A stretch of 22,290 nucleotides of DNA from a virus: the IMG/VR virus record IMGVR_UViG_3300020201_000102, positions 1-22,290 of that record, one strand, 5' to 3'. The translations under genes and the position numbers were made by a program. The first letter of the stretch is position 1, and each line of letters opens with the position of its first letter. Below the pieces are notes generated by a model, which saw only the letters and a program-made list of their open reading frames with translations, made no database searches and had not been told where the DNA came from. Positions 7,227 to 20,928 of this stretch are shown here, in pieces.

Positions 7227-7718
7227 ATGCCAGCTGAAACGCTTGAAGTTGCACAGTTGCTCGCGAATACATACGAGCCGAAGAGGAAGTTCCGCTGGAT
7301 CCTACAGATCGATGGCCTCGACGCCTTCGTCATGAAGACCACGGCCCGCCCGCAGGCCACCTTTGAAGAGACGGTGGTCGACTACGTTAACGCCAAGCGC
7401 TACCTGGCTGGCAAGATGGCGTGGAATCCGATGGCTGTCACCATGCACGATCCTGTCGCCCCTTCGGCAGCTCAGAAGGTCATGGACTGGCTTCGCCTCA
7501 ACTACGAGCCTCTCACTGGCCGCATGGGCTACGCCTCCTTCTACAAGAAGGATTTCACCCTCAAGCTCCTGGATCCGCAGGGAACTGTTGTCGAGTTCTG
7601 GGACATCAAAGGTGGTTGGCCGCAGGACATCAACTGGGGAGACCTGGACTACGCCTCGAGCGACAACGCCGAGATCGCGTTCACCCTCCGCTTCGACAAC
7701 GCCACCCTCCAGTACTAA
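7227..7718 (+). CDS. Tail tube protein (T4 gp19-like)
   Basis: It is 163 aa, the same length as T4 gp19. The C-terminal block DIKGGWPQDINWGDLDYASSDNAEIAFTLRFDNA parallels the gp19 block IKGLWPTNVGELQLDWDSNNEIQTFEVTLALDYW. The SD is GAGGAGAAAAG. Confidence 0.9.
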   Translation: MPAETLEVAQLLANTYEPKRKFRWILQIDGLDAFVMKTTARPQATFEETVVDYVNAKRYLAGKMAWNPMAVTMHDPVAPSAAQKVMDWLRLNYEPLTGRMGYASFYKKDFTLKLLDPQGTVVEFWDIKGGWPQDINWGDLDYASSDNAEIAFTLRFDNATLQY

Positions 7719-13345: not shown

Positions 13346-15481
13346 ATGGCTCATGAAGTAGAACTACTCGGTAAGTTCCTCGGCACTCGGGCGAAGAATC
13401 CCGACACTGCCGCTTCTCCGTATGACCCGGTCAAAGAGAGTCCACTTGAGCTGGACCTGCCGAACCACGACCTTACCTTCTCCAAGCCTGCCCCATTGCC
13501 ACCTCCACCCAAGGTGGAACTGAGCGCACCGAGCGCCCTCCCGCCTCCTCCAGCGGTGGTCCTAGACCCGATCGATCCCATCCCGGATCCTCCAAAGGTG
13601 ATCCTCTCCGTTCCGGCGGTCCTTCCGCCGGAACCACCGCCGCCAGCTTCCATCCCAGGGATCCTTCCGCCTCCTCCGGCGACCGTCAATATTCTGCCGA
13701 CTCCGCTTCCACCACCGCCGGCGACCGTCAATCTCTTGCCGCATGCGTTGCCACCACCGCCGGCGACCACGAATCTTCTGCCTCACGCGTTGCCACCTCC
13801 TCCGGCGACCGTCAATCTTCTGCCTCACGTACTTCCCCCGCCGCCGGCGACCGTGCGGAGCATCCCCGGACTGCTTCCTCCGCTCCCGTTGACTACAAAG
13901 TCGATTCCGGCCGCGCTTCCTCCTCCTCCAGCGTTCGTGATTCCTCCTTCGAATCAAATCATCATGCCGAAGCCTGCGCCACCGGGTCCACCGCCGTTCG
14001 TAGAACCTCCAGACTTTGAGGTGAAGTACGGACCACTCGACAACAAGCTTGACTGCACTCCTCAGGAAGCTCCAGATCCGAAGCTGGTCAATCCACTGGC
14101 GACACCGAATTCTGGTTACTCTATCCTGGGAGAGACGTACTCTCCACTTCTTGGAGCGGCAGATCCAGGTACGCTCTCTGGCGATCCATTCATGTACGCC
14201 CGCCAGGTGGAACGCCAGCTCCGCATCAGTCCAGGCAAGATCACCCTCCACGCACTCACACAAGTAGGTCTCTTCGCCCAGAACGTCTACGGTACCGTCT
14301 GGAATCCAGCGTTGATGGCTCCCCCTCCGGGAAGCAGTGAGTTTCTTCTGCCGGCTCTGGACCTCGGCGGTGGTGGTATCGGGGCGTTCGACAAGACGAA
14401 CAAGGACAACCAGGAAGGGAAGACAGAGGAGCGCCAAGTCCAGATCGGCGAACTCGTTGATGCCGTCCTTGACAAGACGTTTGAAAAGGGGAACACCACT
14501 GGCAAGAACCTCGTGGGACCGAATCCGGGGTACGGTCCGAACAACGATGCCATCGCCCGCATCGCTCCGAGGCAGAGTCTCTCGCGAGGACTTTCTGCGG
14601 CCTTCGACAATGTCGCCGCAACCATCAGTTCAGTCGCCAAGAACGGTCTGAATCCTCCAAAGTCAAAGGAAGACCTGCTCAAGAAATGGGGGATGGCATT
14701 CGAGAATGGTGTCATGCCGATGCGTCTACGTGGAGATAATAAGTTCGGTTTCCGGACGTTCCAGGGTGGTCCAGGTGGAGGGCCGGGGGATGAGACGTCT
14801 CCAGATTCAGTGTACCTGCCTCTTTGCTTTACGGACCTCCGTCCCGTCGGGAATGTCTACAGGACAGTGTACTTCAGACCGATAATCACGAGCCTGACAG
14901 AAGGTCTTGCTCCTGAGTGGAACAAGGCGCAGTACTACGGACGTGTCGATCCTGTCGCTACGTATATGTCGACCACGCGCACGATCAACATGAGCTTTGA
15001 GCTACACGCGTTTGGTCCAGAAGATGTGAGGACTATTTATCAGAAGCTGCACTGGCTTTCTTCGATGGTATACCCTGAGTACGACAACAATCTTGTGTAC
15101 AAGTCTGGACCGGTCGTTCGTATGCGAGTCGGTGATCTTGTCAACGCTGTCGGTCCCGAGGGTGGACGTGGTTTACCCGGGATCATCGAGAGTCTCGACT
15201 ACGATTACTCAGAGTCACTCTGGGAACTCAAAGAAAACTACAAGCTTCCTCGACAGGTCAAGGTCACTCTTACGTTCACCGTCCTGCACGATCTCCCAAT
15301 CGGCCGTGGAGCTGAGGGAAGGTTTGGCGGTATGGGTCTGATCAATAGCGATGGATTGTACGAGGCTAACCAGATTGATGGTGAGGTCCTTGTTGATTCG
15401 ACGGCCTTCCGGCAGTTCGGCACGGGTGCACCTGTTCGATACAACACTCTGGCTAAAGCCAAAGACGAGACAGAGGAGTAA
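13346..15481 (+). CDS. Baseplate or tube-junction protein (possibly T4 gp48/gp54-like tube cap or initiator) with an N-terminal proline-rich repeat extension
   Basis: The SD is GAGGAT and the product is 711 aa. The C-terminal ~250 aa reads YLPLCFTDLRPVG..VYFRPIITSLTEGLAPEWNKAQYYGRVDPVATYMSTTRTINMSFELHAF..EDVRTIYQKLHWLSSMVYPEY...GPVVRMRVGDL. That resembles the tube-fold cap or initiator pattern as I recall it. The position directly after the tape measure fits this role. Confidence 0.45.
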   Translation: MAHEVELLGKFLGTRAKNPDTAASPYDPVKESPLELDLPNHDLTFSKPAPLPPPPKVELSAPSALPPPPAVVLDPIDPIPDPPKVILSVPAVLPPEPPPPASIPGILPPPPATVNILPTPLPPPPATVNLLPHALPPPPATTNLLPHALPPPPATVNLLPHVLPPPPATVRSIPGLLPPLPLTTKSIPAALPPPPAFVIPPSNQIIMPKPAPPGPPPFVEPPDFEVKYGPLDNKLDCTPQEAPDPKLVNPLATPNSGYSILGETYSPLLGAADPGTLSGDPFMYARQVERQLRISPGKITLHALTQVGLFAQNVYGTVWNPALMAPPPGSSEFLLPALDLGGGGIGAFDKTNKDNQEGKTEERQVQIGELVDAVLDKTFEKGNTTGKNLVGPNPGYGPNNDAIARIAPRQSLSRGLSAAFDNVAATISSVAKNGLNPPKSKEDLLKKWGMAFENGVMPMRLRGDNKFGFRTFQGGPGGGPGDETSPDSVYLPLCFTDLRPVGNVYRTVYFRPIITSLTEGLAPEWNKAQYYGRVDPVATYMSTTRTINMSFELHAFGPEDVRTIYQKLHWLSSMVYPEYDNNLVYKSGPVVRMRVGDLVNAVGPEGGRGLPGIIESLDYDYSESLWELKENYKLPRQVKVTLTFTVLHDLPIGRGAEGRFGGMGLINSDGLYEANQIDGEVLVDSTAFRQFGTGAPVRYNTLAKAKDETEE
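13487..13945 (+). repeat. Degenerate in-frame 42-bp (14-aa) tandem repeats encoding LPPPPATVNLLPHA-type units
   Basis: About 10 units: PLPPPPKVELSAPSA / LPPPPAVVLDP.. / ILPPPPATVNILPTP / LPPPPATVNLLPHA / LPPPPATTNLLPHA / LPPPPATVNLLPHV / LPPPPATVRSIPGL / LPPLPLTTKSIPAA / LPPPPAFVIPP. Confidence 0.85.
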
Positions 15482-15484
15482 TCG

Positions 15485-15799
15485 ATGGCTAAGAGTCGCC
15501 ACAGCGATACTGGATTGGTCGATGGGAAGCACTACAAGAGCTTCATCCTTCCCAAGGCGGCCGCGGGATTAAAGAATGTCGACCTCCTCCAAGGGGTCAA
15601 GACGACTGAGTACGTCTACAAGGCTGCCGATCGACTTGACCATGTTGCTGCCAAGTTTCTCGGTGATGATCAATACTGGTGGGTGATCGCCCTCGTCAAC
15701 GGAATCAACTATCCATTCGCGTCTGGTGGTCTGGTACCAGGACGTGTGCTTAGGATCCCTGTCTTTGTGAAGGACGTCCTTGATAAGCTGTTGGGGTGA
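15485..15799 (+). CDS. LysM-like tail or baseplate protein (P2 gpX / T4 gp53 LysM type)
   Basis: YVYKAADRLDHVAAKFLGDDQYWWVIALVNGINYPFASGGLVPGRVLRIP fits the LysM/gpX pattern Y.V..GD.LD.IA....G....W..I...N......L..G..L.IP. The SD is GAGGAG. Confidence 0.75.
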   Translation: MAKSRHSDTGLVDGKHYKSFILPKAAAGLKNVDLLQGVKTTEYVYKAADRLDHVAAKFLGDDQYWWVIALVNGINYPFASGGLVPGRVLRIPVFVKDVLDKLLG

Positions 15800-15802
15800 T
15801 GC

Positions 15803-17563
15803 ATGCCTTACGAAAATCCAGAACATTTTCAGGTTCAGGGGAAGGATGATAAGCCGTTCGCGCTCGTCTCTCAGGCGGCCGTTGAACTTCTTGAAGGGAT
15901 CCTTCCGGCTGAGAAGGCTCAGTCTGTCCCGTACATCTTGATCTGGCAGATCGATCCGTCGACAGGGAAAGCCAAAAACAGTCCATTGTCCAATGGGTAT
16001 TCCGAATTCCCCCTCAGCCTTGCATACGTCGAGCCACCGAAATTCGGAGCACAAGTGGGTGCCGAATTCAGGTTCCGGGAGCGTCCCCCAGTGTCGCTGG
16101 AACGCATCTCTATCAAGTCACAGAACCCACGTGGACTGATCATGTACCGGTTGGTAGAACTCAACTTCACGGTCCACCGTCCCGACGTTGTCTTTGGCGA
16201 ACCAGCAGTTGACGGACATGATGCTTGGTCTTCCCTAGTCAACCTCGGTACAGTACACGCGCTTGAATACGGTTGGTCATCATCCCAAGGAGTCAAGAAC
16301 GGTATTCTGAATGGTGAGGGATTCTCCGATCCCAACAAGGATGTTGCCATCACCGGAAGACAACAGGTCAGATTCGTCGTGACGAGCTATACGTTTACCA
16401 TCCAACCGGACAATCAGATCAAGTTCGTCATCAAGGGATTTGAAGATGGTGAGTTCAACTTGCGTCAGGCAGAGATCGCGAAGAACCCGGCCACCGATGC
16501 TCAGAAGAAAGAATCTGGGAAGATAAAGATCAAAGAGAAGACCGATCCAAACTCCTACGACGGAAAGCCAATTAAGGATTTGATAAAGAAGCTTCAGGAC
16601 GACGTGGCCGGAAACGCCACTAATGACAGGAAAAAAGGTGGTAAGGTCGTGTTCTTTGGAAAGCTCTTCGACGTCGTCTTTGCTAAGAAGATCGAAGAGG
16701 CGTACAAAGAGTTGGGCTATGAGCTTGAAGGAATCTTCATGGGGAGATTCAACGGTCGCTGCGGCACTCCGGCTCCGAAGTATGGTTCGACCAGCATGAA
16801 GGACGCTCCTATCTCAGACTTTACGTTCCCGCTTGACGACATAGAGAAACACTTTCGGGAACTCATCAAAGCTGGAGCTCAGTTGACGCTTCATAACTTC
16901 ATTAACTCGTTCCTTCGTTTGTTCGAACAGCAACACGTCTGGGACAGGAAGGATGGAAAGAACGACAAGGACACGACCGTCCCTCAGATCCACATGCGAA
17001 GTATCCAACGTCGGGACCGCGGTGGCAAGTTGAAGGTGTCGTTTCATATTTTCGATGCGACCAGAGAGTTTACCAAGTTTACCAAGGACGATTCTCAAAA
17101 GCTTCCGAAGGAGAACCAGACCAGGGCAAACATTAAGAAGATCGTTCAAGACAAGGGAATCCCGTTCGTCTCTCTTGTACGCGCCAACTCGTTTGTCAAA
17201 GACTGTAACTTCGACACAGTGATGGATGAGCAGCAGGCCGGTATTCTCATGCGTCGGGCTCTGACCGAATCTTCGACACGGCAGGCAAAGGTTGAGAACG
17301 CCGACCTGGCATCAAAGGAGAATAGGCTCGTCGGGGCTGTACAACTCTTCTCCCCCGTCATCAACGGGAATATCACGATGATTGGGAACTTCGTCTTTGA
17401 TGTCTTCGCCCTCATTTGGATAGAGTTTGGAGTCAGGCAGTGGGATGGTCCTTTCAACATCGCCGAGAAGGAAGACCTCATCACGCGTGGTGATTTCACC
17501 ACGACTCTCAAGCTTTACTCCGCCGGTACTGACCCACTCGGGACCAAGGCGTCCAAGAAGTAA
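15803..17563 (+). CDS. Large virion protein; candidate baseplate hub (gp27/gpD-like) by position only
   Basis: A 586-aa ORF that starts 4 nt after the LysM gene. Tape measure, tube initiator, LysM, hub is the order seen in other contractile-tail modules. I recognised no diagnostic motif. Confidence 0.35.
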   Translation: MPYENPEHFQVQGKDDKPFALVSQAAVELLEGILPAEKAQSVPYILIWQIDPSTGKAKNSPLSNGYSEFPLSLAYVEPPKFGAQVGAEFRFRERPPVSLERISIKSQNPRGLIMYRLVELNFTVHRPDVVFGEPAVDGHDAWSSLVNLGTVHALEYGWSSSQGVKNGILNGEGFSDPNKDVAITGRQQVRFVVTSYTFTIQPDNQIKFVIKGFEDGEFNLRQAEIAKNPATDAQKKESGKIKIKEKTDPNSYDGKPIKDLIKKLQDDVAGNATNDRKKGGKVVFFGKLFDVVFAKKIEEAYKELGYELEGIFMGRFNGRCGTPAPKYGSTSMKDAPISDFTFPLDDIEKHFRELIKAGAQLTLHNFINSFLRLFEQQHVWDRKDGKNDKDTTVPQIHMRSIQRRDRGGKLKVSFHIFDATREFTKFTKDDSQKLPKENQTRANIKKIVQDKGIPFVSLVRANSFVKDCNFDTVMDEQQAGILMRRALTESSTRQAKVENADLASKENRLVGAVQLFSPVINGNITMIGNFVFDVFALIWIEFGVRQWDGPFNIAEKEDLITRGDFTTTLKLYSAGTDPLGTKASKK

Positions 17564-17596
17564 ACCTCTCGTCACATCATATGATAAGATGGTGGC

Positions 17597-18976
17597 ATGT
17601 ACAAATTCATCGATGGGTACCTCGATCGCTCCCATCATTACGAGATCTTTCAGGACGGAATCGTTACTTCTGGCAAACATGATCCTCTTATCCGAGTTAG
17701 AGTTCCGGAACGTATAGTCTGTTTCGATTCACGGAAGATCTTCGCTCTCGGTGTAGAACAGGACTCTCTTTACCCTAGTCCTGTATACGACATTAAGCTA
17801 CTATACAGCCACGATGGAGAGCTCTCTCGCCTGGTTCGTAGCATCGATATCCCGATCCGTGGGGATTACCTTGAGCTGGAGAAACGCTTCTCTGCGCACA
17901 CCAAGGCCATTGTTGCAGGTAAGGTGGATGTGGAGACGATCCCACTCCGAGAGTTGATCCCTGATGATCTTCGCCACGAGTATATGTACGCTCGACTCTC
18001 GGCGATGAGACAGCTTTGGGAGAGGTTGACCGAGAAGGACTTGGTCAACTACGAAAAGAATGTGTATCCGATCTACCAGGACATTCTCATCATCGAGAAA
18101 GCTGGGATAAAGATCGACGAGACGTATGTCGCCTCACAGCTTAAGAGGAATGACTTGGCCTCTCATGAGGACAGTTTTTTCAAGAACATTATTGGAAACA
18201 CGAAGAACGGCTTCGCGAAGACGAAGATAAGTCCAGTCGGTTCGAAGACTTGGCGGCTTCGTGTGGAGGGTGGATTCAATTGCATGGCGATCCCACATGG
18301 CGTATGCCGCAAGGCGATCGTTAGCAGGTTCGATGGAGGTACAATCACTACATTTGATTTCAATGCTATTGACTACCGTTGTCTGGTAAGGGCGACAGGC
18401 GATGACAAGTTGAACGAATTCTACGGTGGGTGCCGAGACTTTCACACTCGGACCGCGTCAATCCTGGGGGAAGTGACGCCAGAACTGCGAGTGTCAACAA
18501 AGAAGATCGCCTACACACACATCTACGGTGGATCGACCGAGACCCTCCAGAAACAGACGCTTCTTCCCAGAGCAGTCCTCGCCGAACGAATACAGAAACT
18601 AGACGTGCTGTTCGCCCCAATCACCGACTTCAGGAAGCGCTTGAGCGACCAATCGAGGATCGACGGCTTCCTCATCACTCCTGGCGGTCACGTCGTGAAG
18701 ATTGAGAAGGGAGACCACGATGGCAAGATCATCGGACTTTTCGGCCAGACATACAGTTCGTCAATCTTCAATGTGGCGGTGAAGGTTGTCAACAACATTT
18801 TGAAGATTAGGAATAGACAGAGTCGGATAATCTTCACTGTGCACGATGAGATCGTGCTTGATCTCCACCCTGACGAACGGGAGCTATTGAAAAATCTGGC
18901 AGATGCAATGGAAGTGGCGACAGGATTCGTGGTCAAGGAAAAGGAAGGGAAAAGCTATGGCGAAGCAACCGACTGA
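17597..18976 (+). CDS. Family-A (Pol I-like) DNA polymerase, polymerase domain only, with no recognisable 3'-5' exonuclease motifs
   Basis: Motif A is TTFDFNAIDYRCLV (canonical DYSQIELR). Motif B is RVSTKKIAYTHIYGG, with R...K...Y...YG spacing. Motif C is IIFTVHDEIVLD. Also present are TWRLRVEGGFNCMAIP (canonical TGRLS..PNLQNIP), IIEKAGIKIDETY (canonical ME..G..VD) and DFHTRTA (canonical DIH..TA). The product is only 459 aa. Confidence 0.85.
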   Translation: MYKFIDGYLDRSHHYEIFQDGIVTSGKHDPLIRVRVPERIVCFDSRKIFALGVEQDSLYPSPVYDIKLLYSHDGELSRLVRSIDIPIRGDYLELEKRFSAHTKAIVAGKVDVETIPLRELIPDDLRHEYMYARLSAMRQLWERLTEKDLVNYEKNVYPIYQDILIIEKAGIKIDETYVASQLKRNDLASHEDSFFKNIIGNTKNGFAKTKISPVGSKTWRLRVEGGFNCMAIPHGVCRKAIVSRFDGGTITTFDFNAIDYRCLVRATGDDKLNEFYGGCRDFHTRTASILGEVTPELRVSTKKIAYTHIYGGSTETLQKQTLLPRAVLAERIQKLDVLFAPITDFRKRLSDQSRIDGFLITPGGHVVKIEKGDHDGKIIGLFGQTYSSSIFNVAVKVVNNILKIRNRQSRIIFTVHDEIVLDLHPDERELLKNLADAMEVATGFVVKEKEGKSYGEATD

Positions 18977-19550
18977 AGAAGAGATCATCCAAGCTGCCGA
19001 ACGTCTCACGGGATTTTTCGACTTCCTTCCCGAACCGCGAAGGGACCTGGTTCGAAAGATGATGGATGGTCCCGTCGGTCAGCAGTATTCGACGTGTCCA
19101 GCCTCCTCGAGGGATGACTACCACAGCTGCTTCCCAGGTGGTCTCCTTATCCATTCTCTGAACGTAATCAGAAACTTGAACAAACTGTCAAAGGCACTCT
19201 GCCCAGGGAAGTACACTGATTCTACCCTCATATTCGTCGGGGCGTTCCACGATCTCGGGAAGGTGGGAGATGGTGAACAGCCGTACTACGTCCCGAATCC
19301 GTCAGATTGGCACCGGCAAAAGGGCATGCTCTATGAGGTAAACAAAGAGTGCGTCTGGATGCCGACCTCTGAACGAGGCCTCTATATCCTCCAGAAGCAC
19401 GGGATTGAGGTCACTTCTGACGAATATCTGGCGATCCGACTGAACGACGGACAGTATGATGAAGCTAATCGTGGATATCGGATGAAAGAACCAGGGCTTG
19501 CGTTGTTGGTCCACTGGGCTGACATGTGGTCGTGTCAGCAAGAGAAATAG
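18957..19550 (+). CDS. HD-domain metal-dependent phosphohydrolase (YhaM-type HD-like)
   Basis: ATG 18957 follows AAGGAAGGGAAAAG and overlaps the polymerase gene by 20 nt. PASSRDDYHSCFPGGLLIHSLNV...LIFVGAFHDLGKV matches the pattern PA....HH...GGLL.H.L.V...L..G..LHDI(G/A)K. Confidence 0.75.
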   Translation: MAKQPTEEEIIQAAERLTGFFDFLPEPRRDLVRKMMDGPVGQQYSTCPASSRDDYHSCFPGGLLIHSLNVIRNLNKLSKALCPGKYTDSTLIFVGAFHDLGKVGDGEQPYYVPNPSDWHRQKGMLYEVNKECVWMPTSERGLYILQKHGIEVTSDEYLAIRLNDGQYDEANRGYRMKEPGLALLVHWADMWSCQQEK

Positions 19551-19627
19551 TCACTTCAAGTCTAAACCCGAGAGGTGGGGCTACTTAAGTTGAGAAGTTC
19601 CGTCCTCTATATCTACGGGAGTCCAGG

Positions 19628-20137
19628 ATGAAAATCAAGAGATCAGTTTTGGAGAGAATCATCCGCGAGGAGCTCGCCAATCACATTCACGAGATGATGG
19701 AGGCTGCCCCAAAGGACAAAGAGGACACCGAAGTCGTCGACGCTTCTGCCGAAAAGAAGAGTAAGGAGAAGCCTGGCGGGAAGGGCGAAGAGAACCCGAC
19801 AAAGCCACAAGGCTCCACCGGCGTGAAGCAGCCAGGTGGAAACGTACCTCCGGAAGTTCAGGTGGCTGACGAGCCAGAAGCTGACGATGAGCTCGCGACC
19901 GACGTCGCCACTCCTGACGAAGAGGAAGATCCAGCAGAGATCACCGGAGGCAAAATCTCCGACGAGATCGCTGGTAAGACTATCCAGTCCATCTCTATGG
20001 AACCGAAGTCCAAGCTCCTGCCAGGTGCTATGGAGATCGCCATGACCTTCAGAGAGATCCCGGATCCGCTCAAGATCCTGATCACGAAAACGGGGCAGGT
20101 GAAATTCCATTTCAAATGGCTTCACAACGAGCTCTGA
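19628..20137 (+). CDS. Hypothetical acidic protein with a disordered, charge-rich centre
   Basis: The SD is GGGAG. The protein starts MKIKRSVLERIIREEL, followed by ~90 aa rich in Lys, Glu, Asp, Pro and Gly, then a short folded-looking C-terminus. Its TGA overlaps the next ATG. Confidence 0.7.
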   Translation: MKIKRSVLERIIREELANHIHEMMEAAPKDKEDTEVVDASAEKKSKEKPGGKGEENPTKPQGSTGVKQPGGNVPPEVQVADEPEADDELATDVATPDEEEDPAEITGGKISDEIAGKTIQSISMEPKSKLLPGAMEIAMTFREIPDPLKILITKTGQVKFHFKWLHNEL

Positions 20138-20928
20138 TGCCGTTTAAGTCTGATCAGCAGAGGAAATGGATGTTTGCGAACGATCCCGAGATGGCAAAGC
20201 GTTGGGCAAAAGATGAAGCTGAACGGAACGGCCACGAAGGATTTGAGGTACAGGACGCCTGCCACGATATGGACCCGCTCGACATTCGAGAGATGCCGCA
20301 TCTTCAAGCCGATATAGAAGCGGGTGGCAAAAAGCTGCATATCGTCGATCTTCGGATCGAGCGGTATCCGATCACACAGGTTGAAAAGCAACGGATGATG
20401 CGTGCATTCGCCAAGACGGGACTAGTTGGTGACTTCAACGGGGAACTTCTTCACTTTCGTCCGGACGGTTCGGCTGACGTCATCGACCAATCTGCCGCTG
20501 CGCAACTTCCGAAGTTGCCAAACGGATGGGACAAGATCATGAAGTTTGTCTCTGAGGCTCACGTCGGTAACCGGTTCATTCCTGACGATGACGAACCGAT
20601 GCTAGAGCCGCTAGCTGTCGCCGGAGATGGTCCCAGCATCCTCAAGGTCTTCATCCGGGAGAACGATGGTAGCATCCCGAAGAATCAAGATCTCCCGGAT
20701 CCAAAGAAGGATGGACAGGAGTTCAAGAAGGTCGGCGTGACATATGCGGTTCAGATGGACGAGCCGTTCACGGTCAAGACCATCGAGAACGACACGGCTG
20801 AAGCCAAAGCTGGAGACTTCCTATGTAAGGGACCGAATGGTGACATGTGGCCCGTCGACCAAGAAGTCTTCAAGCAGACCTACAAGCCTGCCTCACCCAA
20901 GCTGGAAAATGTCTTCAAAAGGAAGTGA
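20137..20928 (+). CDS. Hypothetical protein with a DUF3008-like N-terminal motif (KS.QQR.WMFA..PEMAKRWA)
   Basis: ATG 20137 overlaps the upstream stop (TGATG); the ORF-track start at 20116 is less likely. The N-terminus is MPFKSDQQRKWMFANDPEMAKRWAKDEA. The C-terminus contains GDFLCKGPNGDMWPVDQEVFKQTY. Confidence 0.7.
   Translation: MPFKSDQQRKWMFANDPEMAKRWAKDEAERNGHEGFEVQDACHDMDPLDIREMPHLQADIEAGGKKLHIVDLRIERYPITQVEKQRMMRAFAKTGLVGDFNGELLHFRPDGSADVIDQSAAAQLPKLPNGWDKIMKFVSEAHVGNRFIPDDDEPMLEPLAVAGDGPSILKVFIRENDGSIPKNQDLPDPKKDGQEFKKVGVTYAVQMDEPFTVKTIENDTAEAKAGDFLCKGPNGDMWPVDQEVFKQTYKPASPKLENVFKRK

Follow-up and report, generated by a model that had tools for sequence, protein, structure and literature searches.

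In the 22,290-bp viral contig IMGVR_UViG_3300020201_000102 (referred to here as the window, i.e., the whole stretch of DNA that was analyzed), we identified a two-gene system on the + strand that comprises a small family-A DNA polymerase (PolA) of 459 amino acids (aa) and, overlapping its 3′ end, a stand-alone HD-domain protein of 197 aa that resembles the nuclease YhaM. The polymerase retains its polymerase motifs, its 3′-5′ exonuclease domain is probably vestigial, and the pairing with the HD gene is conserved across two deeply divergent groups of polymerase. The window represents about 11% of its source genome according to CheckV, which implies a phage genome of about 200 kb, and our reading of the pair draws both on the window and on related contigs. 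We propose, tentatively, that the small PolA is an accessory gap-filling or repair enzyme and that the co-translated HD protein is a partner that would process 3′ ends for it.

The open reading frame (ORF) encoding the polymerase (17597-18976, +, with the stop codon TGA at 18974-18976) matched PF00476 (DNA_pol_A) with E = 2.4e-21 and 76.6 bits against a gathering threshold of 34.3, with this match confined to residues 236-439, and matched a PHROG DNA polymerase family with E = 1.4e-21; the NCBIfam Pol I equivalog cut-offs were missed (PRK05755/TIGR00593, 68.1 bits vs. 720 and 53 vs. 600). We found 61 homologues of 272-496 aa (most of them 410-496 aa), with PF00476 as their only domain and located on contigs as large as 219 kb. 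Alignment to 6vdc and Bst Pol I located motif A, DFNAIDYR, at 18356-18379 (+), with D254 as the catalytic residue and with D259 falling on the steric-gate Glu of the Pol I of M. smegmatis (DYSQIEMR) and Bst (DYSQIELR). The same two enzymes served to align motif B (R298, K302, Y306, Y310, and G311; 18488-18529, +), in which Y306 is aligned with the Phe of Bst, i.e., the Phe762 or “B3” position, where T7-like PolAs carry Tyr (PMC10201439). Motif C, VHDE, is encoded at 18839-18850 (+; H416-D417-E418), with D417 being catalytic. All of these residues, including D254 and the unusual D259 and Y306, are invariant in a 32-member alignment whose members are 32-86% identical to the window protein. The AlphaFold2 (AF2) model of the polymerase had a predicted local distance difference test score (pLDDT) of 94.2 and a predicted template-modeling score (pTM) of 0.90, and Foldseek, in accord with a palm, fingers, and thumb arranged as in Klenow, matched it to Klenow (1kfd), Bst, and M. 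smegmatis Pol1 (6vdd) with E values of 1e-19 to 1e-17 and query-normalized template-modeling scores (TMq) of 0.67-0.72. By sequence and by predicted structure, this confirmed the 459-aa protein as a family-A polymerase in which all polymerase catalytic residues are conserved, and with it the motifs A, B, and C, the Asp at the steric gate, and the Tyr at the Phe762 equivalent that a first-pass annotation had read from the window. A pseudogene or chance ORF was rejected, since the catalytic residues are invariant across 32 to >70 sequences. The presence of D259 at the steric gate together with Y306 at B3 suggests a relaxed sugar selectivity.

The part of this protein that precedes the polymerase domain does not contain a recognizable proofreading exonuclease. 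Searches of Pfam (including PF01612) and NCBIfam identified no exonuclease family in the polymerase ORF, and hhalign against a 649-aa PolA with exonuclease and polymerase parts gave an alignment confined to residues 206-445, with the exonuclease part uncovered. The first-pass annotation was therefore correct in reporting that Exo motifs are absent and that the N terminus is short; the upstream part is nearer to 85 aa than to the 140 aa that it had given, since the long helices of the AF2 model begin at residue 88. Residues 1 to ~85 (17597-17851, +) form a beta-rich mini-domain in the AF2 secondary structure, with strands at residues 2-9, 14-19, 22-27, 34-36, 39-42, and 53-55 and helices at residues 45-50 and 66-69. 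A DEDD exonuclease domain needs ~170-200 aa, against the ~85 aa available here. Only R46 and D65 of the mini-domain are invariant in the 32-sequence alignment, and the would-be Exo I positions vary. The Foldseek alignments of the polymerase nevertheless extended over ~590 columns against targets of 560-600 residues with exonuclease and polymerase parts, and since ~590 aligned columns and a TMq of ~0.7 would be hard to obtain from the ~320-residue polymerase part alone, the mini-domain appears to overlie the exonuclease domain of these targets. It is probably a remnant of a 3′-5′ exonuclease domain, without the DEDD tetrad, and “vestigial” describes this domain better than “absent”. An exonuclease hidden in residues 1-140, a finding that the first-pass annotation had named as counting against its view, was rejected, as Pfam, NCBIfam, and hhalign found none and the fold search points to a shrunken vestige. 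That annotation also proposed a search for a separate exonuclease elsewhere in the genome, which we carried out on relatives: a separate DEDD exonuclease (PF01612) was present in 0 of 9 related records, and PF00929 (RNase_T) in 1 of 5 (G010 only).

The HD protein (18957-19550, +) gave a weak match to Pfam HD when searched alone (E = 0.04), and matched PHROGs 5889 and 28876. A profile built from 26 homologues identified B. subtilis YhaM (9h3f, E = 8.7e-6) and staphylococcal YhaM/Cbf1 (9o7t, 0.0057) in the PDB, with Cas3 HD nucleases as the next matches at ~0.01. The AF2 model (pLDDT 94.1) contains no beta-barrel, and Foldseek aligned it to 9h3f over 211 columns with E = 1.3e-4 and TM 0.63/0.59, the sole PDB match below 1e-3, with the next at E > 0.03. 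HD proteins of the dNTPase type (SAMHD1 etc.) reached only E ≥ 0.035 and TM 0.34-0.44 in Foldseek and gave no PDB sequence match, and no DatZ- or Dmp-like viral structure was found among the BFVD matches, the best of which was A0A1U9WR93 (434 aa, TMq 0.73), a protein close in size to Gp21 of Streptococcus phage Dp-1. With structural scores that were weak throughout, a DatZ- or dNTPase-like identity was rejected. The YhaM-like character proposed in the first-pass annotation is thus upheld by profile and by fold, and its own counter-case, a plain dNTPase, is disfavored by the fold comparison.

Detailed comparison with YhaM demonstrated both the extent and the limits of this resemblance. YhaM is an Mn-dependent 3′ exonuclease that acts on single-stranded DNA (ssDNA) and RNA as a D3 hexamer, with a binuclear H..HD..HH..D site and an N-terminal OB domain required to bind ssDNA (PMC12107432). 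The 197-aa phage protein spans YhaM residues 103-314 by fold, i.e., the HD domain and the helices preceding it, and its motif block PA..H..GGL..H ... HDLGKV is matched by the profile. The active-site residues of its N-terminal half (H56, H66, H98-D99, and K102; 19122-19262, +) are invariant in the homologue alignment and in 71 wider relatives, whether paired with a PolA or not, and H66 and H98-D99 are aligned with YhaM H163 and H193-D194 (profile; PMC12107432). Unlike YhaM, the phage protein contains no N-terminal OB domain, corresponding end-to-end with the HD part alone, and contains no HH doublet. Conservation identified E156, D164, H186, and D189 (19422-19523, +) as candidate metal ligands in its C-terminal part, and these residues together with H56 could supply the metal ligands. 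It also differs from YhaM in being phage-encoded, coupled to a polymerase, and only 13% identical in sequence; the hexamer and the Mn-dependent exonuclease activity are known for YhaM. We therefore class the HD protein, from sequence and model, as YhaM-like but predicted to be without two of the defining features of the YhaM family. This family is large, with 268 representatives at E ≤ 1e-30 and 3,753 at E ≤ 1e-3, and the best 150 representatives are all stand-alone proteins of 121-287 aa.

The two genes are joined by an overlap that suggests coupled translation. The HD ORF can also be read from an ATG at 18903; 25 homologues start at the Met of the ATG at 18957, and with the start taken there the protein is 197 aa long and the overlap with the polymerase gene is 20 nt, the value given in the first-pass annotation. 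The purine-rich, Shine-Dalgarno-like sequence AAGGAAGGG is located 7 nt before this ATG, so that the putative translational coupling region (18941-18976, +, by sequence reading) contains this sequence, the HD start codon, and the polymerase stop codon.

We then assessed how far the pair is conserved. A scan of IMG/VR with the HD profile returned at least 592 loci, from which the best 80 were taken, and 59 of these had enough upstream sequence to be informative. In 37 of the 59 informative loci, the HD gene is immediately preceded by a small PolA-like ORF, mostly within ±55 nt, and two more loci contain still more divergent PolAs in this position. For example, L006 (polymerase 49% identical), L008/L009 (38%), and L114 (HD protein 94% identical) show the same gene order as the window; in L006, L008, and L114 this order is baseplate hub, tape measure, ~650-aa, 104-aa, and ~600-aa proteins, PolA, and HD, and the PolA and HD genes overlap by 14-20 nt. 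The PolAs partnered with the HD protein split into two deeply divergent groups. Group 1, which includes the window polymerase, consists of proteins of 440-495 aa with motif A DFNAIDYR, Tyr at B3, motif C VHDE, and the N-terminal mini-domain. Group 2 consists of proteins of ~400 aa with motif A DFxALEAR, an aliphatic residue at B3, and motif C LHDA, in which the mini-domain is essentially absent, with at most ~25-40 aa ahead of the polymerase domain. Since group 2 retains the Glu with the same HD partner, the steric-gate Asp is not tied to the pairing. The HD protein is conserved much better than the polymerase (e.g., 63% vs. 38% identity on the same contig), and the faster change of the polymerase fits an accessory enzyme. 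Conservation of the pairing had been set in advance as a test that could refute the link between the two genes, and the pairing came through it in both polymerase groups.

Analysis of the relatives argues that the small PolA is not the enzyme that copies the genome, contrary to what the first-pass annotation had implied by treating it as the polymerase of the phage. DnaE-type Pol III alpha was present in each of the six pair-bearing records searched (group 1: G005 and G009; group 2: G006, G008, G010, and G012) and in none of the four records searched that have an HD gene and no adjacent PolA. PolB was rejected as the replicase of the pair-bearing phages, as it is absent from G005, G006, and G008; it is present in G007, which has the HD gene and no adjacent PolA. 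The full-length DnaE proteins of G009 and G005 both contain PHP, NTPase, and finger domains, and that of G009 contains HhH in addition. Their PHP domains read FASLHNHS...DHG...E...H...C...DSH, which appears to be the intact metal-ligand set of a PHP-proofreading DnaE. Homologues of this DnaE are found on contigs of 198604, 195649, 176819, 218858, 195088, 48605, and 32371 bp, the sizes of contigs that contain polymerase and HD homologues, and on a contig of 75297 bp, the size of the one containing the 94%-identical HD protein. Among the 120 homologues listed, DnaE identity is 48-80%, against 33-61% for PolA outside its two nearest relatives. All four relatives searched for it encode a stand-alone FEN on the same strand, at a distance of 3-18 kb downstream, and RecA is encoded 10 kb downstream of the pair in L006. 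Because the pair-bearing relatives carry a full DnaE with PHP and a separate FEN, we consider the small PolA to be probably a second, accessory polymerase and not the replicase. The lineage appears to hold a bacterial-style set of a DnaE replicase, a separate FEN, and a polymerase-only PolA, and jumbo phages with a PHP-bearing Pol III alpha have been described as one replication type (Iyer et al. 2021, PMC7824862).

Several further features of these replication loci were observed. In group 2 records G006, G008, and G010 (L101-L106), the Pol III alpha match is split into two or three open frames, and some DnaE homologues of ~1400 aa contain an intein Pfam domain (P0286, P0297, and P0301); together, these suggest that part of the clade has a DnaE interrupted by inteins, introns, or gene fission. 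In L112 (G009:C1:9000-16500), DnaE is flanked by a 326-aa thymidylate-synthase-family protein and a 362-aa reversibly glycosylated polypeptide (RGP)-type protein, and in G005 an RNA_ligase-family gene lies directly upstream of DnaE, flanking genes that hint at nucleotide or base modification and at nick sealing. Giant CTP_transf_like proteins are encoded a few genes past the pair in L006 (13708-17664, 1318 aa), L008 (13982-20887, 2301 aa), and L114 (13607-18271, 1554 aa), followed by a small gene with an ATLF-type metalloprotease Pfam label. A few homologues are found in metagenome bins labeled Isosphaeraceae, Planctomycetes, and Acidiferrobacterales, a weak hint at hosts in which mis-binning is possible.

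Under the explanation that we tentatively favor, DnaE, probably with its own PHP proofreading, would copy the genome, and the small PolA would take the job of bacterial Pol I, filling gaps after primer removal by the separate FEN and also performing synthesis during repair or in association with recombination. Produced together with the polymerase through the overlapping genes, the HD protein would be a metal-dependent 3′ exonuclease acting on primer termini that are mismatched or blocked, on 3′ flaps, or on RNA ends. Since it does not contain the OB domain of YhaM, it would need the polymerase or its own oligomer for access to DNA. That the HD protein acts as a 3′ nuclease at all is, on sequence and model, a serious possibility that still falls short of being probable.

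A number of observations weigh against this explanation. The HD protein is distant from YhaM, differing in the OB domain and HH doublet as well as in overall identity, and the HMMER alignment to YhaM covers only its N-terminal half. DnaE and FEN are seen in the relatives only, with the window being a small part of its genome, and a beta clamp (PF00712) was detected in 0 of 5 relatives searched, where the clamp may have diverged too far or that of the host may serve instead. The mini-domain is not a docking site for the HD protein, because group 2 polymerases have no vestige and still have the HD partner, and no PolA-HD fusion was found among 66 polymerase homologues and the 150 best HD representatives. 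Furthermore, the HD family also occurs without an adjacent PolA, next to ClpP and glycosyltransferase genes in PolB phages, in Flavobacterium phage immuto, and in Dp-1 (L091, HQ268735.1 13160-14404), whose 414-aa Gp21 carries the HD domain at its N terminus and is encoded directly after three clamp-loader genes; since the family occurs away from PolA, the activity of the HD protein is likely to be independent of the polymerase. The location of Dp-1 Gp21 is also an independent tie of the HD family to replication genes.

The strongest alternative, which we regard as rather unlikely, is that the HD protein is a nucleotide-pool enzyme, i.e., a (d)NTP pyrophospho- or triphosphohydrolase or a dNMPase comparable to YpgQ, DatZ, or T5 Dmp, that does not touch DNA ends. 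Co-expressed with the polymerase, such an enzyme would clear damaged or unwanted (e.g., canonical) nucleotides, perhaps in a phage with modified bases. This would suit a protein that consists of a single ~200-aa HD domain with no nucleic-acid-binding domain, and whose family is also found without a PolA neighbor in other phages; YhaM itself is grouped with binuclear HD enzymes that include the nucleotide hydrolases YqeK, YpgQ, and SpoT (PMC12107432), and modification of nucleotides or bases is hinted at by the thymidylate-synthase-like and RGP-type glycosyltransferase genes beside DnaE in a relative and by the giant CTP_transf_like proteins that relatives encode past the pair. Set against this, the best match by both sequence and fold is the nuclease YhaM, with SAMHD1 and dNTPases far behind it and Cas3 HD nucleases next in the profile search, and no DatZ- or Dmp-like structure is found among the BFVD matches. 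A pool enzyme would also not need a tight translational coupling to the polymerase that is maintained across deep divergence.

Less likely still is the stronger form of the nuclease explanation, in which the HD protein is a dedicated editing subunit in trans, i.e., an HD-fold exonuclease that replaces the lost DEDD proofreader; proofreading in trans, the first-pass hypothesis, is plausible but unproven. It is improbable that the pair is a relaxed-sugar polymerase working on RNA-containing substrates, by RNA-primer extension or ribonucleotide insertion, with the HD protein trimming RNA 3′ ends: every one of the 32 group 1 sequences has D259 in place of the steric-gate Glu, Y306 occupies the position of ddNTP (dideoxynucleotide) discrimination, and YhaM degrades single-stranded RNA besides ssDNA (PMC12107432), but group 2 has the canonical Glu and the same HD partner, and an Asp carboxylate could still gate the 2′ position. 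Most improbable of all is that the small PolA is the main replicative polymerase with the HD protein as its proofreader, which would accommodate its invariant catalytic residues, a B3 Tyr typical of replicative T7-like PolAs, and the position of the pair at the head of a DNA-metabolism block, but which is contradicted by a full-length DnaE (PHP, finger, HhH) in every pair-bearing relative searched, by the far better conservation of DnaE among the 120 homologues listed, and by a precedent that treats divergent small PolAs as additional to the regular polymerase (PMC11348598).

This precedent is among the closest known parallels to the window polymerase. Yutin et al. (2024, Virol J 21:200; PMC11348598) described divPolA1 and divPolA2 as divergent, exo-dead or exo-less PolAs that occur beside a regular polymerase, with divPolA1 found in phages of 155-190 kb, where it heads a block of replication genes. 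As in the window family, divPolA1 is a small divergent PolA that is present besides the replicase, keeps its palm residues, and has a lost or dead 3′-5′ exonuclease. In Flavobacterium phage immuto, for example, it is 441 aa long and located in a block with SSB, RecA, FEN, and DnaB, and the relatives of the window family have RecA and FEN downstream. Immuto-like phages also have a homologue of the window HD protein (35% identity), ~77 kb from divPolA1. The two families are distinct, however: divPolA1 has motifs A and C of its own that differ from those of the window family, and in hhalign the group 1 profile matched immuto divPolA1 with E = 6e-11 over 265 columns of the polymerase part, against 1e-11 for an ordinary PolA. 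From these comparisons, the window polymerase family seems to be of the same kind as divPolA1, and not divPolA1 itself. No HD gene adjoining divPolA1 is described in PMC11348598, in which the word “phosphohydrolase” is absent.

Other exo-less PolAs also differ from the window pair in the nature of the partner. Czernecki et al. (2023, PMC10201439) described such enzymes either as T7-like PolAs split from their own DEDD exonuclease gene or as CCPol with MP. Both S-SBP1 and the CCPol-MP pair of SCCmec resemble the window in having a gene for a PolA that consists of the polymerase part only (with an exonuclease remnant in CCPol) adjoining a presumed partner gene. In S-SBP1, the adjoining gene encodes the very DEDD exonuclease that the PolA is missing, separated from it by a frameshift, and in CCPol the partner MP is a beta-barrel protein, whereas the partner in the window is downstream, overlapping, and of the unrelated HD fold. 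An HD partner is described for none of the 19 PolA clusters in PMC10201439, and our literature search found no paper linking a YhaM-like HD protein to a phage polymerase. The bacterial Pol I enzymes with a vestigial exonuclease (Taq, Bst, and M. smegmatis Pol1) are the best structural matches of the window polymerase and share with it an inactive, exonuclease-like N terminus and an existence beside a Pol III replicase. Their vestige measures 130-190 aa, against ~85 aa in the window polymerase, which also has no fused 5′-3′ exonuclease, with FEN being a separate gene in the relatives. Exo-dead second PolAs in large phages are thus already known from divPolA1 and divPolA2, and what distinguishes the present system is its conserved HD partner.

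The pair belongs to an uncultivated myovirus of ~200 kb. Every long gene of the window is carried on the + strand, beginning with a tail sheath gene (to 2083, by Pfam and PHROG) and continuing with genes for the tail tube (7227-7718), a T4-type baseplate hub (9207-10016), and the tape measure (10211-13336). Directly after the latter is a gene for a 711-aa proline-rich protein (13346-15481), which gave no match in Pfam and PHROG searches; the long, proline-rich N-terminal half of this protein contains near-tandem units of the LPPPPATVNLLPHA type, and a protein of this size is kept in the relatives. The tail/baseplate module ends, 33 nt before the polymerase ORF, with genes for a 104-aa gp53/LysM-like protein and a 586-aa protein (15485-17563). 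Following the HD ORF are genes for an acidic 169-aa protein, a PGDYG-domain protein, and a tubulin/TubZ-like protein, in this order. The last of these, the third gene past the HD gene, is a 396-aa member of the tubulin/FtsZ family (20932-22122; Pfam Tubulin E = 1.5e-10, TubZ-like C-terminal domain 1.4e-4, NCBIfam ftsZ 8.5e-16) that is also found in the closest relative, L114, and which could represent a phage cytoskeleton of the PhuZ/TubZ type. A search of the + strand at 15400-20300 for promoters and terminators gave no match, with counts not above those in shuffled sequence. Among cultured phages, no close relatives were found, the best phage-database match of the polymerase being 24-27% identical over the polymerase part only; the HD protein has its best cultured-phage matches in immuto (35%) and in gp21 of Dp-1 (32%). 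These Pfam and PHROG assignments bear out the neighbors named in the first-pass annotation, namely, tail and baseplate genes before the pair and a tubulin-type gene after it. That annotation had also called the location odd; the position stands and the oddness does not, as the pair marks a conserved boundary at which the tail module gives way to a DNA-metabolism block; in the relatives, RecA, FEN, and DnaE are located downstream on the same strand.

Second, exo-dead PolAs of large phages have been recognized only lately, and the presence of a conserved, coupled partner leads to a testable idea of how they work. An HD protein that edits 3′ ends, or makes them ready for the polymerase, would represent a novel type of accessory nuclease for polymerases, and the pair would offer a compact two-protein system for enzymology and biotechnology, built on a polymerase of ~50 kDa with an unusual Asp and Tyr. 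If the HD protein proved to be an editing subunit, DNA polymerases would gain a third fold for proofreading, besides DEDD and PHP, in the form of a two-gene enzyme conserved in a large clade of uncultivated phages; if it is instead a pool hydrolase, it would tie nucleotide-pool control to repair synthesis. Either way, these ~200-kb phages would have a bacterial-style division of labor, with a DnaE replicase, a Pol I-like polymerase, and a separate FEN.

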